Source: Bacteroidota bacterium (GTDB lineage: Bacteria; Bacteroidota; Bacteroidia; Bacteroidales; F082). Taken from it: DNA of 64,000 nucleotides. Made by a program: the position numbers and the translations under genes. Position 1 is the stretch's first letter, and each line of letters begins with the position of its first letter. The stretch is taken from positions 107,716-171,715 of the forward strand of contig JAHJTC010000014.1 in NCBI GenBank assembly GCA_018830105.1. The letters run 5' to 3'. Of the stretch, positions 2,868 to 57,229 are shown piece after piece. The notes under the pieces are model-generated. The model had not been told where the DNA came from. It saw only the letters and a program-made list of their open reading frames with translations, and made no database searches.

Positions 2868-3678
2868 GGCATTTGTCTTTTGTGTTTTGGAGGGCTTTCA
2901 CTTCCTGAATAAATTTGCGGCAGGCTATCTCGGGGCGTACTTGCTGCATAAAGTGTTCACCGATTAGAAAACCTTCATAGCCGGCCGCTTTAAGCTGAAC
3001 GACTGTTTGCGGATCTTTTAATCCGCTTTCGGCTACCTTAACCATTCCCGCCGGAAGCTTTTTGGCCAGTTCAAAAGCTGTTTCGACTTGGGTTTCCATT
3101 TGCTGAAGATTGCGGTTGTTTACACCGGCCAAAAACCGGTCGTCACAGATTTTATCCAGTTCATGCTCATGATGGATTTCCAGCAGCACTTCCATTCCCA
3201 GGGTCATTGCCAGCTCACCAAATCGCCGTATTTCTGCTTTGCTCAATGCTGATGCTATCAGCAGTATGGCGTCTGCACCTATTGATTTTGCTTCGATAAC
3301 CTGATATTCGTCGATGATAAAATCTTTGCGCAAGATAGGACAGTAATTGTACTTACGCGATGTGATCAGATCCTGGTTTTTGCCTCCAAAAAACGATTCA
3401 TCCGTAAGTACCGATAAGGCAGAAGCTCCGGCCTGCATATAACCGATGGTAGTCCGTTCAACAGGGGCGTAAGGATTAATAGCGCCACGAGAAGGCGATT
3501 GCCGCTTGAATTCAGCGATAATGCCTGTGAGATCCGGACGGCAGATATATTTTTTAAGCGATAGAGGCAGTGTCTTGAAATAGATACTTTTCTCAAGCAA
3601 TTTGATTGGATAGAGGCTTTTACGCTCATCCAGCTCAGTACGTTTAGTGCTAATTATGCGATCGAGGATAGTGTTCAT
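2854..3678 (-). CDS. trpC: indole-3-glycerol phosphate synthase
   Basis: 274 aa with IIAEFKRQSPSRG, LSVLTDESFFGG and PILRKDFIIDEYQ motifs. Confidence 0.93.
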   Translation of the reverse strand: MNTILDRIISTKRTELDERKSLYPIKLLEKSIYFKTLPLSLKKYICRPDLTGIIAEFKRQSPSRGAINPYAPVERTTIGYMQAGASALSVLTDESFFGGKNQDLITSRKYNYCPILRKDFIIDEYQVIEAKSIGADAILLIASALSKAEIRRFGELAMTLGMEVLLEIHHEHELDKICDDRFLAGVNNRNLQQMETQVETAFELAKKLPAGMVKVAESGLKDPQTVVQLKAAGYEGFLIGEHFMQQVRPEIACRKFIQEVKALQNTKDKCHEQS

Positions 3679-4667
3679 AGGTTTATTTCAAGTAGTTTTT
3701 TAAAAATTTGAAAAGCTTTTTTGTCTTGCAGCGACTCGCGGGCACGTGCTACACTGTCGATAAGACTTTCGTTGTGAAAGTGTTGCAAGGCAAGTGCAGC
3801 GTTTGCGATTACCGTATGTTGCTGAGCTTCGGTACCTTGTCCTTTAAGAATCGTTAGAAATAGTTGTGCTGCTTCAGCGCTGTTATTGCCACCAATGATG
3901 GCGGTGGGTTGGTTTTCAGAAAGTCCGAAATCCGAAGGGGAAAGCCAATATTCCTGATTGGTTTTCAAAACCCTTGTTTCTGCAGTAAGCGTGCATTCAT
4001 CATAGCCGTCAAGGCTATAAACAATGGTGGCTTCCTGCTCTCCGCGCTGAAAGATATATTGGTATTTGCGCGCAATTTCCAGGTTGAAAACACCGCTCAG
4101 CTGATAGGTTGGTTTTGCGGGATTGACCAGTGGACCAAGCATATTGAAGAAAGTTTTTACGCCTAATGCACTTCTTACCGGTGCCACAGTTTTCATGGAA
4201 GGATGAAAAAGCGGTGCATGCAAAAAACAGATACCGGCCTGGTCTAATTCCTTTTGCAGCTGACTTTCTTTATTCGTAAAACGGTACCCAAGGGCTTCCA
4301 GCACATTGGATGAACCGCTTACAGATGAAACACCGTAATTGCCATGCTTGATCACTTTCTGCCCGGCGCCTGCTACCACAAATGCTGTTAAAGTGGAAAT
4401 ATTAAAGGTGTTTTTGCCATCACCGCCAGTGCCACACAAATCAATTGCCGGCTCTGATGTTAGTTTTAGTGGGATACAAAGTCCGAGCAGGGCATCTCTG
4501 AATCCGCTGAGTTCTTCAACAGAGGGGGGGCGCATGATAAATGCCGTCATAAATGCTGCTATCTGTGGTTGGTTGTATTGCCCGGCTGTTATGCGAATCA
4601 AGACGTCTCTGGCTTGATCATAGCTCAGCTGCTGATATTGAAACAGTTGATCTAATATTGCTTTCAT
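3675..4667 (-). CDS. trpD: anthranilate phosphoribosyltransferase
   Basis: 330 aa with DLCGTGGDGKNTFNISTL and KHGN motifs. ATGA overlaps on both sides. Confidence 0.95.
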   Translation of the reverse strand: MKAILDQLFQYQQLSYDQARDVLIRITAGQYNQPQIAAFMTAFIMRPPSVEELSGFRDALLGLCIPLKLTSEPAIDLCGTGGDGKNTFNISTLTAFVVAGAGQKVIKHGNYGVSSVSGSSNVLEALGYRFTNKESQLQKELDQAGICFLHAPLFHPSMKTVAPVRSALGVKTFFNMLGPLVNPAKPTYQLSGVFNLEIARKYQYIFQRGEQEATIVYSLDGYDECTLTAETRVLKTNQEYWLSPSDFGLSENQPTAIIGGNNSAEAAQLFLTILKGQGTEAQQHTVIANAALALQHFHNESLIDSVARARESLQDKKAFQIFKKLLEINL

Positions 4668-5278
4668 TTGCTATGCTGTGTTGAGGTGCTGTTTTTAGTA
4701 ATTTTTGTTTTGCCTGTCTTGAGCCAATTCTGAATAATCATTTCACCCTCAGGCGTTAAGATCGATTCAGGATGGAATTGCACAGCACATAAATCATGGG
4801 TTTTATGCTGAATAGCCATGATCTGGTGGTTTGCATCTTCCGCCGTAATTTCAAGACAATCGGGTAATGTATCCACATCAGCAACCCACGAATGGTAGCG
4901 TCCTGCAATAAATGTGGGACTAAGTCCGGCGAGTATATAGCTGTTCCTGATTATGTTAACAGGAGTTGCCACACCATGAACAACATGGGGAAGGTTGTAG
5001 AGTTTGCCGCCATAGACTGACGCGATGGCCTGCAATCCAAGACAAACACCAAAAATGCTTTTTGAAGGAGCATACTTCTCGATGAGTTGCATCAAAATGC
5101 CTGATTCCTGCGGTAAACCGGGGCCGGGCGAAAGCATTATTTTATCGTACTCAGCCACCTTGTCCAAGCTGATTTTGTCGTTGCGGAACACCTCAACAGT
5201 GGCCTTGCTGTTTTCGGTAAGCAGCTGAACCAGATTGTAGGTAAAAGAGTCGTAATTATCTAAAACGAGAATTTTCAT
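4664..5278 (-). CDS. trpG: anthranilate synthase component II (glutamine amidotransferase)
   Basis: 204 aa. MKILVLDNYDSFTYNL, GVCLG (nucleophile Cys) and FHPES triad motifs of class-I GATase TrpG/PabA. Confidence 0.9.
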   Translation of the reverse strand: MKILVLDNYDSFTYNLVQLLTENSKATVEVFRNDKISLDKVAEYDKIMLSPGPGLPQESGILMQLIEKYAPSKSIFGVCLGLQAIASVYGGKLYNLPHVVHGVATPVNIIRNSYILAGLSPTFIAGRYHSWVADVDTLPDCLEITAEDANHQIMAIQHKTHDLCAVQFHPESILTPEGEMIIQNWLKTGKTKITKNSTSTQHSK

Positions 5279-25778: not shown

Positions 25779-28598
25779 TTAACGGTTGCAAATGCCTGCA
25801 AAATCGCAATAGCTGCAGTACTTTGTTTCGGTGGTTTGAACAACAGGAGTTTCCGGATCATAGATTTCACCAATTACGATGTTGAGTTGCTGGATGATGC
25901 TGTCAGCCAAACTTGCAGATTCTTCGGGATCAGGAAGGTTTAAGTTGAGCATACCCTTGCCTGGTTTTTGCAGGCTGATAATACCACACTCCATTTCTTT
26001 TCCAGAAAATGTTAAATCCGATTTAAGGATAAGAAGCTGATAAATGGCCAGTTGCAACGCCTTACTTTTTGCGGGTTTAAGTAACTCATCCCATGCTTTT
26101 AAAGACAGGTCAGTTTCATGGACACTGCCGGTTTTGTAATCGATCAAACGAATCTTATCATTCTGCTGATCAATACGGTCGATAGTGCCTTTTATCTTGA
26201 TTTTCTGCCCCTTGGATTCAATGAAAACTTCGAGTTTCTTTTCCAGTCCTTTAATAGTGATTTCGTTACTGACAAGATTTTTTTTCTCGTAGCTCAAAAA
26301 ATTCTGTACAAACTGTCGGGCCACTTCCTTCATGAGCAAGCTATTTCCAAAATCTGCCAGACCGGCAGGGTAAATCTCCAGAAGATGTTTATTTAAGACA
26401 TTTTCTGATGACTCAGTCATTTTATCAATTGCTGTTGGCGTGATTTTTTTATCAACAAATTCTTGGTAAAGGGTTTCCAGCGTATTGTGTACAGCAGTTC
26501 CCAGATCATTGTATTGAATAGCATCGGAATATTTTGCCTGGACTTGCAAGCCGACAACATTACCCAAATAAAACCTGAGCGGACAAATAATATAGTTGGC
26601 CAGGCTGGAGGGAGACAGGCCCGTTTCTCCTTTTTTCTTGAGCAGTTCCATCACAGGAATACTTTTCGCGATGGTGATTGCATTATCTTGTTTATTAGAT
26701 GGCGGAGGAAGCTCAAAAAGTTGATTACGCAAGCTTATTTTTGGGTTTAGTTTGAGCAGCTCGAAGCGAATTTGCTGGATAAACCTGCTTTGCTCTCCGC
26801 TTCCGAATGAACCTGGCTCGTTGTTATAGTAAAGGTGAATGGTTTCTGCTTTTTGCAGTAGTCTGAAAAAATGATAGGCATAAACGGCTTGTCTGTCAAA
26901 GTGGTTTGATAAGTCGAATGCCTTTCTGATGTCGGGAGGAATAAGGGATTGATAGGACTTTTCGTGCGGCAGGATACCTTCGTTAACGCTTAGTATATGA
27001 ATATTTTTGAAATCAAGGTTTCTGGTTTCTAATAAACCCATAATCTGAAGACCTTGAAGCGGTTCGCCCGAAAAAGGAACCTTAAGGCTCAGTGCGAGTT
27101 TATTGAATAAGGAACTGAAATCTTCAAAATTGAGGATGGCGGCATTTGATTTCGTTAGCTGTTGGATTTTGATCAACAACTTTTTTGAGGCAATAAATTG
27201 ATTGACAATCGTATGCTTTTCCGGTTTTTTGCTTTCAAGCACCCAATCGCTCAACTGATTGATGAATGAGATAATTTCGCCCAGTTGTGCACTGATGTCA
27301 TCAGTAACAGGTTTTAACAGGGCTTCAAACAGAACCGCTAAACGGGAATTTTTGTCAAAGCTTTTCTTTATTTCTTCTGCTTCAGCAAATCGCTGGCTGT
27401 TATTCAATAGTTGTTGCTTCCAGCGCATAAGCTGTTGCATGCTTTCATCATCAAGCAAATAGGTGTTCAATTCGTGCGAACTCAGTTGCAGCAATGGTTT
27501 CAGGTGATACCTGGTATTGAGCTGTACTTTTCGTTGCTTCAGATGAACATTGATGTAGGTGCTAAGGTATTGGAATACAGCAGTTTTATTAAAAGGAAAC
27601 CCAAGCGTTACATTAAAATGCCCAACAGAATCAGGAATGGCATTTAACACCGGAATCAATAAATTTTCATCTGCAAGCACAATGGCAGTGTTGTTGTCGG
27701 CCTCGCTATGCATAAGTTCATGACCCATCGCTTTGGCTTGTGTCGCATTTCCGGGTATCGGATGAACAATAATTTGTTTGCTGCTATTAATTAAATCGTC
27801 TGATATAAAGTTCCTTACAGCATTTGGAAAACGATCGGAAAACTTCCTGATAAAATTTCCGGCTTCATGTAATCCAAATGCATTGGCCTTGAAATAATAA
27901 GTATCGATATCCCAAAACAACAGGGCTTTTTCGGCCTGAAACAGCTTAACCACGATTTTCTCCTCAGCCTTAGTCAGCGCATTGAAACCTGCAAAAATTA
28001 TTAACTTGTCAGCCGTTCTATTGATAAGTTCCCCATCTTCAAGATCAGCTAAATATCTTGCAACCATGCCGCTGTACGCCATGCCTTTTTCAGTTAAGCG
28101 ATTGCGCAGCGCATGATAATCTTTTTCGAGTAAGCGATAAAAACTGAGAAAGCGCTTTTCGCTATCACTTAGGGCTGTTCCATCCGGATGCCATATCTCC
28201 AGTGCTTTAGCTTCTTTGAGGTAGCCAAAAACTGCGCTGGCATCTGCCATTTGCTGGTCAATCTCATTGTAATCCTCTGCCATTTGTGCGGCAAGACCGG
28301 CATATTCTGCCAAACTGAAATCATCGGCAGTAAGCTGCGCGGCCTTCATCTCGAGTAGTTCAAACTGCACGCTAAGGGAATCGGCTAGCTCCCACGGACT
28401 CCAATCGGCAAAGGCTTGTTCTATCGTGCTGATCTGAGGCAGCCAGGAAGCTTTGGAAAGGCTTTGGGAGAGCGCTTTCTTGAAGAACAATCCGGCGCGC
28501 TTATTGGGGAAAAGCAGGATTATATCCCGAAGCCGATCAGCATATGTTACGGCAATATGCTCAGCAAGAAGTTGGATAAACGGTTTATTTGCAGACAT
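25779..28598 (-). CDS. AddB-like PD-(D/E)XK nuclease family protein with Fe-S cluster cysteines
   Basis: RecB-type nuclease motifs GTIDRID...LIDYKTG and QLAIYQLL. Cys in YIICPLRFY plus the terminal CSYCDFAGIC form a 4-Cys cluster as in AddB/Cas4. I prefer the start at MSANKPF (28598), which avoids overlap with murU. Confidence 0.85.
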   Translation of the reverse strand: MSANKPFIQLLAEHIAVTYADRLRDIILLFPNKRAGLFFKKALSQSLSKASWLPQISTIEQAFADWSPWELADSLSVQFELLEMKAAQLTADDFSLAEYAGLAAQMAEDYNEIDQQMADASAVFGYLKEAKALEIWHPDGTALSDSEKRFLSFYRLLEKDYHALRNRLTEKGMAYSGMVARYLADLEDGELINRTADKLIIFAGFNALTKAEEKIVVKLFQAEKALLFWDIDTYYFKANAFGLHEAGNFIRKFSDRFPNAVRNFISDDLINSSKQIIVHPIPGNATQAKAMGHELMHSEADNNTAIVLADENLLIPVLNAIPDSVGHFNVTLGFPFNKTAVFQYLSTYINVHLKQRKVQLNTRYHLKPLLQLSSHELNTYLLDDESMQQLMRWKQQLLNNSQRFAEAEEIKKSFDKNSRLAVLFEALLKPVTDDISAQLGEIISFINQLSDWVLESKKPEKHTIVNQFIASKKLLIKIQQLTKSNAAILNFEDFSSLFNKLALSLKVPFSGEPLQGLQIMGLLETRNLDFKNIHILSVNEGILPHEKSYQSLIPPDIRKAFDLSNHFDRQAVYAYHFFRLLQKAETIHLYYNNEPGSFGSGEQSRFIQQIRFELLKLNPKISLRNQLFELPPPSNKQDNAITIAKSIPVMELLKKKGETGLSPSSLANYIICPLRFYLGNVVGLQVQAKYSDAIQYNDLGTAVHNTLETLYQEFVDKKITPTAIDKMTESSENVLNKHLLEIYPAGLADFGNSLLMKEVARQFVQNFLSYEKKNLVSNEITIKGLEKKLEVFIESKGQKIKIKGTIDRIDQQNDKIRLIDYKTGSVHETDLSLKAWDELLKPAKSKALQLAIYQLLILKSDLTFSGKEMECGIISLQKPGKGMLNLNLPDPEESASLADSIIQQLNIVIGEIYDPETPVVQTTETKYCSYCDFAGICNR

Positions 28599-28602
28599 AT
28601 AA

Positions 28603-29343
28603 CTAGGTTTCTCGCTGTTTAAAAAACTGTTCGATCTCCTCAATTTGGCTCTTCTTGCCTAAATCGAACCAAAAACCTGTTTTGATTGGTTTTGATCTGA
28701 TCTGTTGATGCCTTGCCAAATTCAGATAAAGGTCAATTATACTGGTTTTTCTGACGGGTAAACCGGCAAGTAGTGCAGGTTTTAAAAGGTGAATACCACT
28801 GAATGAAAACTCCTGATAGTCTTTGGTCGGTTTGTCGACCCATTTGTAGCTTTCTATGCGCTTGTCTTTCCATCCGCACAGCTGTTCAAAGGGATCAAAA
28901 AGCAATTGGCGATTGCTCACTCGTTTCTGTGTGAGCAGCCAGGCCATTGCCTCATCACCTTCAAAATCATTAATGATCGATGCGATGTTTAAATCACTGA
29001 TAATATCTACGTTATGTATCAAAACCGATTGGCTGTCAATGAAATAATCCCGGGCTTTTAAAATGCCGCCTCCTGTGTCTAAAAGTTCGTTGCTCTCATC
29101 GGAAATGTAAAGATCAAGCGCGCTAAACTTTGGTTGATTCAGAAATTGGATGACTTGTTCAGCAAAGTGATGTACGTTGACAATGATCGTTGAAACACCG
29201 GCAGCCAATACTTGATTTATCGCCCGTTCGAGCAGCGTTATACCATTAATTTCGAGCAGTGCTTTGGGCCTGGCAGCAGTCAGGATTTCTAAACGAGTGC
29301 CTTTGCCCGCTGCCAATATCATTGCAGTGCGCTTTTTTTTCAT
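28603..29343 (-). CDS. murU: sugar-1-phosphate nucleotidylyltransferase, MurU-like (MurNAc-1-P uridylyltransferase)
   Basis: 246 aa with the N-terminal ILAAGKGTRL motif, a short single-domain NTP-transferase. Lies directly downstream of an AmgK-type kinase, as in the AmgK-MurU recycling pathway. Confidence 0.7.
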   Translation of the reverse strand: MKKKRTAMILAAGKGTRLEILTAARPKALLEINGITLLERAINQVLAAGVSTIIVNVHHFAEQVIQFLNQPKFSALDLYISDESNELLDTGGGILKARDYFIDSQSVLIHNVDIISDLNIASIINDFEGDEAMAWLLTQKRVSNRQLLFDPFEQLCGWKDKRIESYKWVDKPTKDYQEFSFSGIHLLKPALLAGLPVRKTSIIDLYLNLARHQQIRSKPIKTGFWFDLGKKSQIEEIEQFFKQRET

Positions 29344-29468
29344 TTAGGTTGTTTTTCGGCCTTACACAAACGGCTGGTTTTGTTTGAAGTCTGTTTGCAT
29401 TTCAGGCAAAAATACCGTTTATCTTTGTTGATGACCTTTTTATCACTTTTACATTTTTTGTCACTCAT
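29340..29468 (-). CDS. 42-aa Lys-rich, 4-Cys mini-protein (MSDKKCKSDKKVINKDKRYFCLKCKQTSNKTSRLCKAEKQPK)
   Basis: It fills the 117-nt gap between the kinase and murU. Its ATG (29468-29466) overlaps the kinase stop region (ATGAGTGA). Its TGA overlaps the murU ATG (ATGA). Cys spacing is CX14CX2CX10C. Confidence 0.45.
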   Translation of the reverse strand: MSDKKCKSDKKVINKDKRYFCLKCKQTSNKTSRLCKAEKQPK

Positions 29469-30918
29469 GATTAAAATGTTGCTCTTTATGAACACAATTA
29501 ACAAGCAGACTGGGGTATTTTGTTCGGAGATACTGGCTGATTTTATCGGCGCAGTAAACCGATCGATGCTGTCCGCCCGTGCAACCAAAATTAATCATTA
29601 AGTGCTTAAAATCCCGCTTCGTATAATTTTCCACACTTTGCGATACAATAGCCTTAACATTGTTTAAAAACTGATCTACTTCCGGATGGGCTTCTAAAAA
29701 CCGGATTACTTCCGGGTCTCTGCCGGTGAGCATTTTATATTTAGCTTCCCGGCCGGGATTCGGCAAATGCCGGCAATCAAAAACAAAGCCGCCTCCGTTG
29801 CCTGTCAGGTCATCGGGTATGCCGCCCTTTTTATAGGAAAAACTATTGATGCTCAGCAGAAAAGGCGCAAAAGGTGTTTTTTCAATGATAGGGTACTGTG
29901 TTTTTAACTTGCCCAATTGCAAAAAAACGCCTTTTAAACTAACCAATGGCAAGGGGATATCATAATTCGCCGGTAGGCCGTTTAAGGCATGGATGGCATA
30001 AGGAATACTTTCAATAAAGTGTTTCTTTTTCTGTATTAACCCCCTGTAACCATAAGCTCCCATCACTTGCATCAATCGCAGGTAAACAAAAGCCGGATAA
30101 TAGTAATTGAATTGAATATATTTCGGATCGATATAGTGGGCGAGTTTTTTTTGATAAAAATTCAACAGATGTTCTTTCACAGCTTCAGGAATACGGGCCT
30201 TAACCTGAAAAAGCAAGGAAACCACATCATATTGCAGCGGGCCTTTTCGGCCACCTTGAAAATCGATAAAGTTTGTTTTCCCTTCATGGATCATGATATT
30301 TCTCGATTGGAAATCGCGATACATAAAAAAATCGGCAGGGGCTTGCGCAATAAACTGAGCCAATTTGGCGAAATCATGATCCAATTCAGCTTCGTTATAG
30401 ATGATGTCTTTCTGGAGTTTTAGAAAGTAGTACTTGAAATAATACAGATCGTCTAAAATGGCTTTATAATCAAAACTACCCGCAGGATAAGCTTTGCTGT
30501 AATCGAGGTTTGTGTGGCCTTCAAACTGAAATTTGAGCAGATTTGTTAATGCTTCTTCATAGTAATCGACCAGCATAGGATGAAAATCACCTTGCTGCCA
30601 GGCATTTTGAACCAGCGTAAACAGGCTGGTATCGCCAAAATCTGTTTGCAAATACGCACTAAAATCGTATGAAACGGCAATTATTTCCGGAACGGCAAGA
30701 CCTGCTTTTTTGAAGTGTTTTGCGAAGCTCACAAAAGCGTGGTTTTCTTCTACGATGGTGTGATAAGTGCCGATATAGCTTTTGTTGCCGGATCTTAGTC
30801 TGTAATATTGTCGTGCCGAACCAGATTCGGCAAGCGGGCTGATGCTGTCAGGAACATCGCCGGTAGCCGAACGAAACAATTGTTCAAACATTTTGGCTTG
30901 TTCCTTAATGTTTTGCAT
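29461..30918 (-). CDS. AmgK-like anomeric MurNAc/GlcNAc kinase (APH fold) fused to a RapZ C-terminal-like domain
   Basis: The N-terminal ~330 aa carry GSARQYYRL, YRDFQSRNIMI and IDFQGGRKGPLQYDVVSLL (AmgK/APH catalytic motifs). The C-terminal ~145 aa, SFSYKKGGIP..FVFDCRHLPNP..LTGRDPEVIRFL..INFGCTGGQHRSVYCADKISQYL, align to RapZ/YvcJ CTD (SFGFKYGIP..FDVRFLPNP..LTG.D..V..FL..IGCTGGKHRSVY). Confidence 0.8.
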   Translation of the reverse strand: MQNIKEQAKMFEQLFRSATGDVPDSISPLAESGSARQYYRLRSGNKSYIGTYHTIVEENHAFVSFAKHFKKAGLAVPEIIAVSYDFSAYLQTDFGDTSLFTLVQNAWQQGDFHPMLVDYYEEALTNLLKFQFEGHTNLDYSKAYPAGSFDYKAILDDLYYFKYYFLKLQKDIIYNEAELDHDFAKLAQFIAQAPADFFMYRDFQSRNIMIHEGKTNFIDFQGGRKGPLQYDVVSLLFQVKARIPEAVKEHLLNFYQKKLAHYIDPKYIQFNYYYPAFVYLRLMQVMGAYGYRGLIQKKKHFIESIPYAIHALNGLPANYDIPLPLVSLKGVFLQLGKLKTQYPIIEKTPFAPFLLSINSFSYKKGGIPDDLTGNGGGFVFDCRHLPNPGREAKYKMLTGRDPEVIRFLEAHPEVDQFLNNVKAIVSQSVENYTKRDFKHLMINFGCTGGQHRSVYCADKISQYLRTKYPSLLVNCVHKEQHFNHE

Positions 30919-31082: not shown

Positions 31083-31589
31083 ATGGAAACTGGAAAATCA
31101 GCTACTGACATTTTAAAAACTGCCATTTTATTAGAACGAAGAGGCAAAGCCTTTTACACACAAATTGCACGTCAAACAGAAAGTAAATCAGCCCGGAAAA
31201 TATTTGAAATGATGGCTGAAGAAGAAGATGAACATGTGGCTTTTTTGTCCAAACAGTATGCCTATTACACTAAAAACAACGCTTTTATGAAGAATGAACT
31301 TCATGAAGAAGTTGACGATACGGATGCGGTAAAGATTTTATCAGAGGAGATTAAGAAAGAAATTTCTGCTGCCAGTTTTGAAGCAGCCGCTATTTCTGCT
31401 GCCATCGACTTTGAAAATAAAGCCATTGAGGTGTATTCCAGTCGCGCCAAAGAAGCTACTGATGAAAACGAGAAAGAGATGTATCAAATGCTTGCCGATT
31501 GGGAGAAGACCCACCACACTTTGCTCCACCGTTTGAATGAAGACCTGAAGGAACAAATTTGGAACGATAATCAGTTTTGGCCATTTTAG
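31083..31589 (+). CDS. ferritin-like / rubrerythrin-family diiron protein (no rubredoxin domain)
   Basis: 168 aa. Two ExxH-type segments (EEEDEHVAFL; ADWEKTHHTLL) in a four-helix-like repeat. Confidence 0.75.
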   Translation: METGKSATDILKTAILLERRGKAFYTQIARQTESKSARKIFEMMAEEEDEHVAFLSKQYAYYTKNNAFMKNELHEEVDDTDAVKILSEEIKKEISAASFEAAAISAAIDFENKAIEVYSSRAKEATDENEKEMYQMLADWEKTHHTLLHRLNEDLKEQIWNDNQFWPF

Positions 31590-57014: not shown

Positions 57015-57101
57015 ATATTACTTTAAACAAAATACATTACAATAATACCAATGATATCCATAGCAAACTACTATAGACTCAAGCATTATAATGCATGATG
57101 T

Positions 57102-57220
57102 TATTCTCCTCCCATCCAGACTATAACTGTCGGTAACGTAATTGAAACGTTTCAATCCTGCATTTGCAGGACTCGCGGACTTTACCGCCGATCGGGAATT
57201 TCACCCTGCCCCGAAGAATA
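57102..57220 (-). promoter_or_regulatory. FMN riboswitch (RFN element) aptamer
   Basis: Minus strand reads UAUUCUUCGGGGCAGGGUGAAAUUCCCGAUCGGCGGUAAAGUCCGCGAGUCCUGCAAAUGCAGGAUUGAAACGUUUCAAUUACGUUACCGACAGUUAUAGUCUGGAUGGGAGGAGAAUA. It is near-identical to the conserved RFN cores of the B. subtilis ribD leader (CUUCGGGGCAGGGUGAAAUUCCCGACCGGCGGUA ... GCCGACAGU..AAGUCUGGAUGGGAGAAG), with closing helix UAUUCUUC/GGAGAAUA. Confidence 0.92.
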
Positions 57221-57229
57221 ATTACGCGG

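Follow-up and report, generated by a model that had tools for sequence, protein, structure and literature searches.

A RapZ C-terminal domain joined to an AmgK-type kinase and followed by a MurU-like gene: a candidate three-part amino-sugar salvage unit in Bacteroidota and other phyla

Among the described systems closest to the locus reported here is the AmgK–MurU pair, known from Pseudomonas putida, Pseudomonas aeruginosa, Caulobacter and Legionella and reported for Tannerella forsythia, in which a MurU-type nucleotidyltransferase comes after an APH-fold sugar kinase. The proteobacterial kinase is a protein of ∼340 amino acids (aa) with no extra domain (38–39 kDa, PMC11957156). AmgK/MurU pairs are used as metabolic labelling tools for peptidoglycan and modulate sensitivity to fosfomycin, and an unrecognised third module could bear on both, in efficiency and in regulation. 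Here we describe a gene from a 64,000-nucleotide stretch of the genome of a Bacteroidota bacterium (contig JAHJTC010000014.1, positions 107,716 to 171,715; hereafter the window), whose product adds a 140-aa RapZ C-terminal domain (RapZ_C) to a kinase of this type and which is followed by a MurU-like gene.

The domain has been well studied in Escherichia coli RapZ (YhbJ), an RNase E adaptor and glucosamine-6-phosphate (GlcN6P) sensor (structures 5o5o, 5o5s and 8b0i). Its C-terminal domain (CTD) binds GlcN6P (PMC7073468), has its dimer strand at residues 179–182 (YVFD; PMC5737377) and carries a pocket, in the C247–S254 region, that binds sulphate or malonate (PMC5737377; PMC9841335). In the RapZ–GlmZ structure this pocket contacts the RNA backbone, and the substitutions H190A, G249W, R253A, C247A and C247S each abolish RapZ function (PMC9841335). 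The same authors raised the possibility of a catalytic thiol and reported a ‘chemically transformed product’ of GlcN6P in the pocket. Published work has left this pocket chemistry, from GlcN6P binding to the inactive C247S protein and the ‘transformed’ crystal ligand, unexplained. Among RapZ homologues, NTPase and phosphatase activity has been reported for YvcJ and for Xanthomonas HpaP (Luciano 2009 and Cui 2018, cited in PMC7525490).

The gene in question runs along the minus strand over 29461..30918, and its product has 485 aa. A first-pass annotation had proposed, without naming the strand, that an AmgK-type kinase is fused to a RapZ C-terminal domain in this interval. The fusion is real: the open reading frame (ORF) has exactly these limits, Pfam places an APH domain and the RapZ domain PF22740 in its product, and the strings FFMYRDFQSRNIMI, IDFQGGRKGPLQYDVVSLL, LPNP, LTGRD and GCTGGQHRSV are all found in the 485-aa protein.

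The kinase part comprises residues 1–340 (29899..30918, minus strand). The Pfam match to APH (PF01636) covers residues 26–256 (E = 3.5e-11), phmmer aligned residues 25–308 to the APH-fold protein 3csv in the PDB, and Foldseek likewise ranked 3csv first, followed by other APH-fold small-molecule kinases. The highest-scoring NCBIfam kinase families were two AmgK models, NF045759 (45.4 bits against a cut-off of 550) and NF045698 (40.3 against 500); the description of the kinase as AmgK-like stands, though at scores far below the family cut-offs. The catalytic motifs, D202-x4-N207 in YRDFQSRN and D219 in IDFQ (30262..30315, minus strand), have D202, N207 and D219 invariant across 27 homologues. 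Taken as a whole, the kinase module is an AmgK-like enzyme of the APH fold, with the catalytic Asp and Asn and the Mg-binding Asp intact.

The RapZ C-terminal domain occupies residues 355–479 (29482..29856, minus strand). The profile scan that the first-pass annotation had called for detected PF22740 there with E = 7e-33 and 113.8 bits (cut-off 27), and in a phmmer search of the PDB residues 357–468 aligned with the E. coli RapZ CTD (5o5s, E = 1.3e-16). The NCBIfam RapZ model (NF003828) scored 100.4 bits, short of its cut-off of 244, and matched through its C-terminal half only (profile positions 158–277). An AlphaFold model of the domain alone (pLDDT, the predicted local distance difference test, 90.6; predicted template-modelling score, pTM, 0.86) was superposed by Foldseek on the RapZ CTD structures 5o5s and 8b0j with template-modelling scores of 0.77–0.88 and root-mean-square deviations of 1.6–2.1 Å. 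RapZ entries alone were significant in this search of the PDB, the next matches having E > 0.7. The match of the fusion protein to the RapZ CTD is thus confirmed as far beyond chance.

To see what the fusion family shares with RapZ, 84 fusion-type C-terminal domains were compared column by column with nine canonical RapZ sequences, the latter being the E. coli protein and eight canonical-size RapZ genes (frames of 298–349 aa) from genomes that also carry a fusion. Common to both sets are S359-F360, P368, D370, F380-D381, R383, N387-P388, G399, the loop G445-C446-T-G-G-x-H451-R452-S453-V454, and H477. The E. coli dimer strand YVFD corresponds to FVFD 378–381, in which F and D are invariant, and oligomerisation through the C-terminal domain, one of the roles first suggested for it, is accordingly plausible. 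The phosphate-binding loop C446-T-G-G-Q-H-R452-S453 (29560..29583, minus strand), a Cys-x5-Arg-Ser sequence equivalent to E. coli C247–S254, sits between β-strand 439–446 and helix 452–467 in the AlphaFold model. Within it, the sulphate/malonate pocket's residues are kept (C446, T447, G448, H451 and R452 for E. coli C247, T248, G249, H252 and R253), and all nine canonical sequences have the string GCTGGxHRS, as do 148 of the 150 top-ranked representatives from a HMMER search.

Other parts of the pocket differ. The position of E. coli His190, which is His in 100% of the canonical sequences, is Gly389 in 99% of the fusion-type ones. This glycine lies in L385-P-N-P-G389-R390 (29749..29766, minus strand), and the adjoining Arg390 of the fusion family takes the place of canonical Trp/Phe191, the residue that contacts the P-loop domain. 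G373-N-G-G-G377 (29788..29802, minus strand), a Gly-rich insert of five residues, occurs in none of the nine canonical RapZ sequences and is near-invariant both in the 84 fusion-type domains and in the unbiased representatives. With an essential His turned to Gly and the Gly-rich insert added, the pocket is remodelled, and its ligand is therefore probably something other than GlcN6P.

Several RNA-contact positions of E. coli RapZ are changed as well: R238 is Phe437, K251 is Gln450 and H190, as noted, is Gly389. The basic tail in which enterobacterial RapZ ends is missing, the fusion protein ending in ...VHKEQHFNHE, and Pfam found the P-loop N-domain (Walker A/B, PF03668) neither in the fusion protein nor across its own genome. 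That genome, which is 94% complete, contains a single RapZ_C domain, the one in the fusion gene, and gave no match to GlmZ (RF00083). R383, equivalent to E. coli R184, is kept, and Lys stands at the K170 position in many fusion-type sequences.

The gene is followed, 117 nt downstream and on the same strand, by a gene for a 246-aa MurU-like protein, a putative sugar-1-phosphate uridylyltransferase (28603..29343, minus strand). Pfam assigns it a PF00483 nucleotidyltransferase domain. Its highest-scoring NCBIfam families were two MurU models (106.8 bits against a cut-off of 250 and 104.4 against 370), and its top PDB matches were the MurU enzymes of P. putida (4y7t) and P. aeruginosa (8hhd), at low identity.

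The window copy is a typical representative of a large and widespread family whose two domains are already annotated in sequence databases. At least 8000 homologues of the fusion protein came up in a word-indexed search, and both Pfam domains were present in 120 of the 120 listed. Whether the architecture had already been catalogued was a question left by the first-pass annotation; it is very common in the databases, under the names ‘RNase adapter RapZ’, ‘phosphotransferase’ and ‘aminoglycoside/choline kinase family phosphotransferase’, the first of which is misleading for the fusion family. A scan of one genome per species gave at least 599 fusion loci. The best 80 of these match over nearly the full length and come from Bacteroidota, Ignavibacteria, Calditrichia, Acidobacteriota, Gemmatimonadota, Lentisphaeria, Delongbacteria and one metagenome-assembled genome (MAG) of Eremiobacterota; in all, the family was found in at least seven phyla. 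With the C-terminal domain alone as query against 1.84 billion representatives, HMMER gave 3239 matches at E ≤ 1e-3, 224 of them at E ≤ 1e-30. In the literature searched we found no paper that brings AmgK and RapZ together, and an oral-microbiome kinase preprint does not mention the kinase–RapZ_C family. Both the family's architecture and a role of RapZ_C as a third module appear to be undescribed in that literature.

The first-pass annotation had inferred a coupling to cell-wall sugar salvage, and the association of RapZ_C with the AmgK–MurU salvage pair extends across phyla. In 60 of the best 80 loci, the gene immediately downstream on that strand is MurU-like. Three split forms were found in which a RapZ_C gene of 133–135 aa stands between a kinase gene of 327–339 aa and the MurU-like gene; in two of the three, kinase and RapZ_C are parted by an in-frame stop codon and a new start. 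Among the best 150 representatives there were also five triple fusions APH–RapZ_C–NTP_transferase (712–768 aa), one RapZ_C–NTP_transferase fusion (387 aa) and some stand-alone RapZ_C proteins.

Co-occurrence was assessed in 201 good genomes evenly sampled from the phylum. RapZ_C was present in 30 of them, with one copy each, in frames of 476–530 aa (27 genomes, fused) or 134–140 aa (three genomes, those with the split forms), and in no frame of canonical RapZ size. A search with the kinase part gave 31 strong matches, namely in these 30 genomes and in one other, G028. Kinase and RapZ_C thus occur together in 30 genomes, the kinase alone in one and RapZ_C alone in none (Fisher p = 6e-35). In G028 (locus L100, C44:43000-50500) the orthologous kinase of 330 aa (ORF 3090-4082) overlaps MurU (4079-4801) by 4 nt, and RapZ_C is found neither in this locus nor elsewhere in the genome. 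This natural deletion indicates that RapZ_C can be dispensed with. Taken together, the split and triple-fused forms, the co-occurrence and G028 identify RapZ_C as a third module that is regularly present, almost obligate and now and then dispensable; its place is always between the two enzymes, and it may be fused to the one or the other.

Two observations concern relatives outside this arrangement. Fusion-type RapZ_C also occurs in other architectures, as in P0223 (570 aa), where HEAT repeats precede it, and P0147 (545 aa), where it follows an N-terminal region of ∼400 aa with no Pfam match. Separately, a single family of the phylum, f19, made up of small genomes, encodes a distant short APH kinase (e.g. 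G061:C9:21982-22848) in frames of 335–406 aa, with 23–30% identity to the kinase part; these genomes lack RapZ_C and AnmK, and the short enzyme is possibly a plain AmgK-like kinase.

We propose, tentatively and with a little less than even confidence, that kinase, RapZ_C and MurU-like enzyme make up a three-part salvage unit for an amino sugar, probably N-acetylmuramic acid (MurNAc), in which RapZ_C binds a sugar phosphate of the pathway and dimerises, for feedback or hand-over. The kinase would most likely phosphorylate free MurNAc, and possibly N-acetylglucosamine (GlcNAc) too, at the anomeric position, and the MurU-like enzyme would convert the sugar 1-phosphate with UTP into the UDP-sugar for peptidoglycan synthesis. 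RapZ_C would be a dimerising phospho-ligand-binding domain and not an RNA adaptor. Its pocket, built on the Cys446-x5-Arg452-Ser453 loop, may hold the sugar phosphate or UDP-sugar of the pathway and so couple the two enzymes, whether through feedback on flux or by passing the intermediate along.

The genome offers a setting for such a pathway. AnmK (C31:98120-99154) and MurA are present, and MurQ was not found in the genome, where it gave no more than a weak match, a SIS domain within a frame of 614 aa. With AnmK and MurA present and MurQ absent, the layout is like the Pseudomonas type of anabolic recycling, and the presence of MurA means that the salvage unit would run alongside de novo synthesis. 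A second parallel comes from the yvcJ–glmR–yvcL operon of Firmicutes and Actinobacteria, where a nucleotide-using domain joined to RapZ_C likewise stands beside an enzyme that makes a UDP-amino sugar from the sugar 1-phosphate. The partner folds are unrelated, P-loop as against APH for the first and CofD-like GlmR as against MurU nucleotidyltransferase for the second. By this analogy, we infer a parallel in which RapZ_C stands beside a UDP-amino-sugar-making enzyme twice, as P-loop–RapZ_C with GlmR in Firmicutes and as APH–RapZ_C with MurU here. The fusion family would also be a much easier system for the pocket chemistry that RapZ has left unexplained, as it has the RapZ pocket, free of the RNA-binding features, in a two-enzyme pathway with defined small-molecule substrates.

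Several points weigh against the proposed salvage unit or against parts of it. Similarity to the known pair is far below the equivalog cut-offs of both AmgK and both MurU models, and the sugar is therefore not established. Since the pocket is remodelled relative to RapZ, the precedent of GlcN6P binding is not simply transferable. AlphaFold modelled the full-length fusion protein confidently, with a pLDDT of 89.3, but the accompanying pTM of 0.70 does not settle whether kinase and RapZ_C are in contact. The G028 locus has both enzymes and no RapZ_C. Finally, a binding-only pocket has no obvious need of a near-invariant Cys, a residue that favours a catalytic role, given that E. coli C247S is inactive and that the authors of PMC9841335 suspect chemistry at the site.

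Such a role is the alternative that survives best, and we consider it possible but rather unlikely. Here RapZ_C would be a third enzyme of the pathway, with Cys446 as the nucleophile in a phosphoryl transfer whose substrate is an amino-sugar phosphate; it might be a MurNAc-6-phosphate phosphatase that stands in for MupP and feeds the kinase, or might transfer phosphate from the 6- to the 1-position between the two enzymes. The spacing C-x5-R-(S/T) on a strand–loop–helix resembles that of Cys-dependent phosphatases (protein tyrosine phosphatases (PTP), low-molecular-weight PTP (LMW-PTP) and ArsC), where it also lies between a β-strand and the N-terminus of a helix. The near-complete conservation of GCTGGxHRS, the loss of function in E. 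coli C247S and C247A with the suggested catalytic -SH and transformed GlcN6P, the phosphatase activity reported for YvcJ and HpaP, and the placing of RapZ_C between the two enzymes in every arrangement, fused to either, all speak for it. So does the fact that the genome encodes AnmK, an enzyme producing MurNAc-6-phosphate, and lacks MurQ, and that MupP models matched none of the four HAD_2-family proteins scanned, of the six it encodes.

The resemblance to phosphatases is one of motif and not of membership, however. Foldseek returned no PTP, LMW-PTP, ArsC or rhodanese fold, and since nothing beyond RapZ was significant, the similarity is at the motif level only; a PTP-like fold, considered as a candidate for RapZ_C, was rejected because the domain alone matched only RapZ. 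In the literature searched, the phosphatase activities reported for RapZ homologues are not attributed to the C-terminal domain. The association of AnmK with the fusion is weak, the gene being present in 25 of the 30 RapZ_C genomes and 112 of the 171 others (p = 0.058), and the control genome of Bacteroides thetaiotaomicron has RapZ_C but not AnmK. One of the four scanned HAD proteins (C30:83753-84283) is weakly Gph-like and is a candidate phosphatase for MurNAc-6-phosphate in place of RapZ_C, and G028 manages without the domain. If the catalytic role were nevertheless correct, which is doubtful to the same degree, RapZ_C would be at root an enzyme acting on amino-sugar phosphates, and kinase, RapZ_C and uridylyltransferase would form a three-enzyme salvage line. 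Enterobacterial RapZ would in that case have gained its small-RNA adaptor role late, through specialisation of an active site that was metabolic, and the same logic would hold for the YvcJ–GlmR pair of Firmicutes.

It is unlikely, though less so than the alternatives that follow, that kinase and uridylyltransferase use a sugar other than MurNAc, such as GlcNAc, N-acetylgalactosamine (GalNAc) or another hexosamine, with RapZ_C as part of that pathway. APH-fold anomeric kinases of other sugar specificities are known, the scores of 40–45 bits for AmgK and 104–107 bits for MurU fall well short of cut-offs of 250–550, and the neighbour shares little identity with the MurU enzymes of solved structure. 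Against this, AmgK and MurU are still the top curated families for the two proteins and MurU is the top PDB match of the neighbour. Moreover, Bacteroidia with an AmgK-type kinase always have the kinase–RapZ_C form in the 201-genome sample, and the AmgK/MurU orthologues of T. forsythia, one of the Bacteroidales, which may belong to the fusion family, reportedly convert MurNAc to UDP-MurNAc and have been put to that use in E. coli (PMC10941766, PMC13691567).

A purely structural role, with RapZ_C serving as a dimer module and oligomerisation scaffold that has no ligand, fits the retention of the YVFD dimer strand (PMC5737377) as FVFD with F and D invariant. We think it very unlikely, because the strongest conservation is found in the phosphate loop and pocket (C446–V454, R383, N387-P388) and not just in the dimer strand, and retained pocket residues are not expected of a pure scaffold.

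The NCBI name of several homologues, the retained R383 and the frequent Lys at the K170 position might suggest that the fusion protein binds RNA and serves as an RNase adaptor, as RapZ does in enterobacteria. This is scarcely credible given the missing P-loop N-domain, basic tail and GlmZ, the changes at H190 (to G), R238 (to F) and K251 (to Q), the NCBIfam RapZ score of 100 against a cut-off of 244, and the lack of conservation of the RNA-binding tail even in YvcJ homologues (PMC7525490). The RNA-sensing function offered by the first-pass annotation as one option for the domain is therefore not supported. In sum of its likenesses, the fusion protein has the CTD fold, phosphate loop, His451/Arg452 and dimer strand of E. 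coli RapZ, but differs in having an APH kinase in place of the P-loop N-domain and a MurU partner in place of the rpoN operon.

Canonical RapZ and the fusion are not mutually exclusive. A canonical-size RapZ occurs alongside the fusion in 8 of 16 non-Bacteroidia fusion genomes (seven Acidobacteriota and one Eremiobacterota MAG). In three Acidobacteriota loci (L107–L109, from G211, G212 and G208), it adjoins hpf or rpoN in every case, a proteobacterial-type context, and in the two that were scanned (L107 and L109) both RapZ domains were confirmed by Pfam. Since the two proteins coexist with different partners, they are paralogues, neither redundant nor replacements of one another.

In the window, the end of the MurU-like gene is overlapped by 41 nt by a gene for a 954-aa AddB-like PD-(D/E)XK nuclease (25779-28643, minus strand). 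The order kinase, MurU, AddB-like recurs in the Bacteroidales-type loci L002–L006, L014, L028 and L077, so that synteny is conserved in several loci; the nuclease has no obvious functional tie to the kinase–MurU unit. Upstream, a 168-aa rubrerythrin/ferritin-like gene (31083-31589, plus strand) is divergent from the kinase gene and lies 164 nt away from it. Two further ORFs, of 82 aa (29340..29588) and of 118 aa on the plus strand (30067..30423), overlap the fusion gene or its spacer and were taken to be spurious. Scanned for promoters and terminators, the surroundings of the genes yielded fewer matches than shuffled sequence did, and none of use. The only Rfam family above threshold within the window was the flavin mononucleotide (FMN) riboswitch (RF00050), at 57100-57222 on the minus strand, with 108.8 bits (gathering score 66.2).

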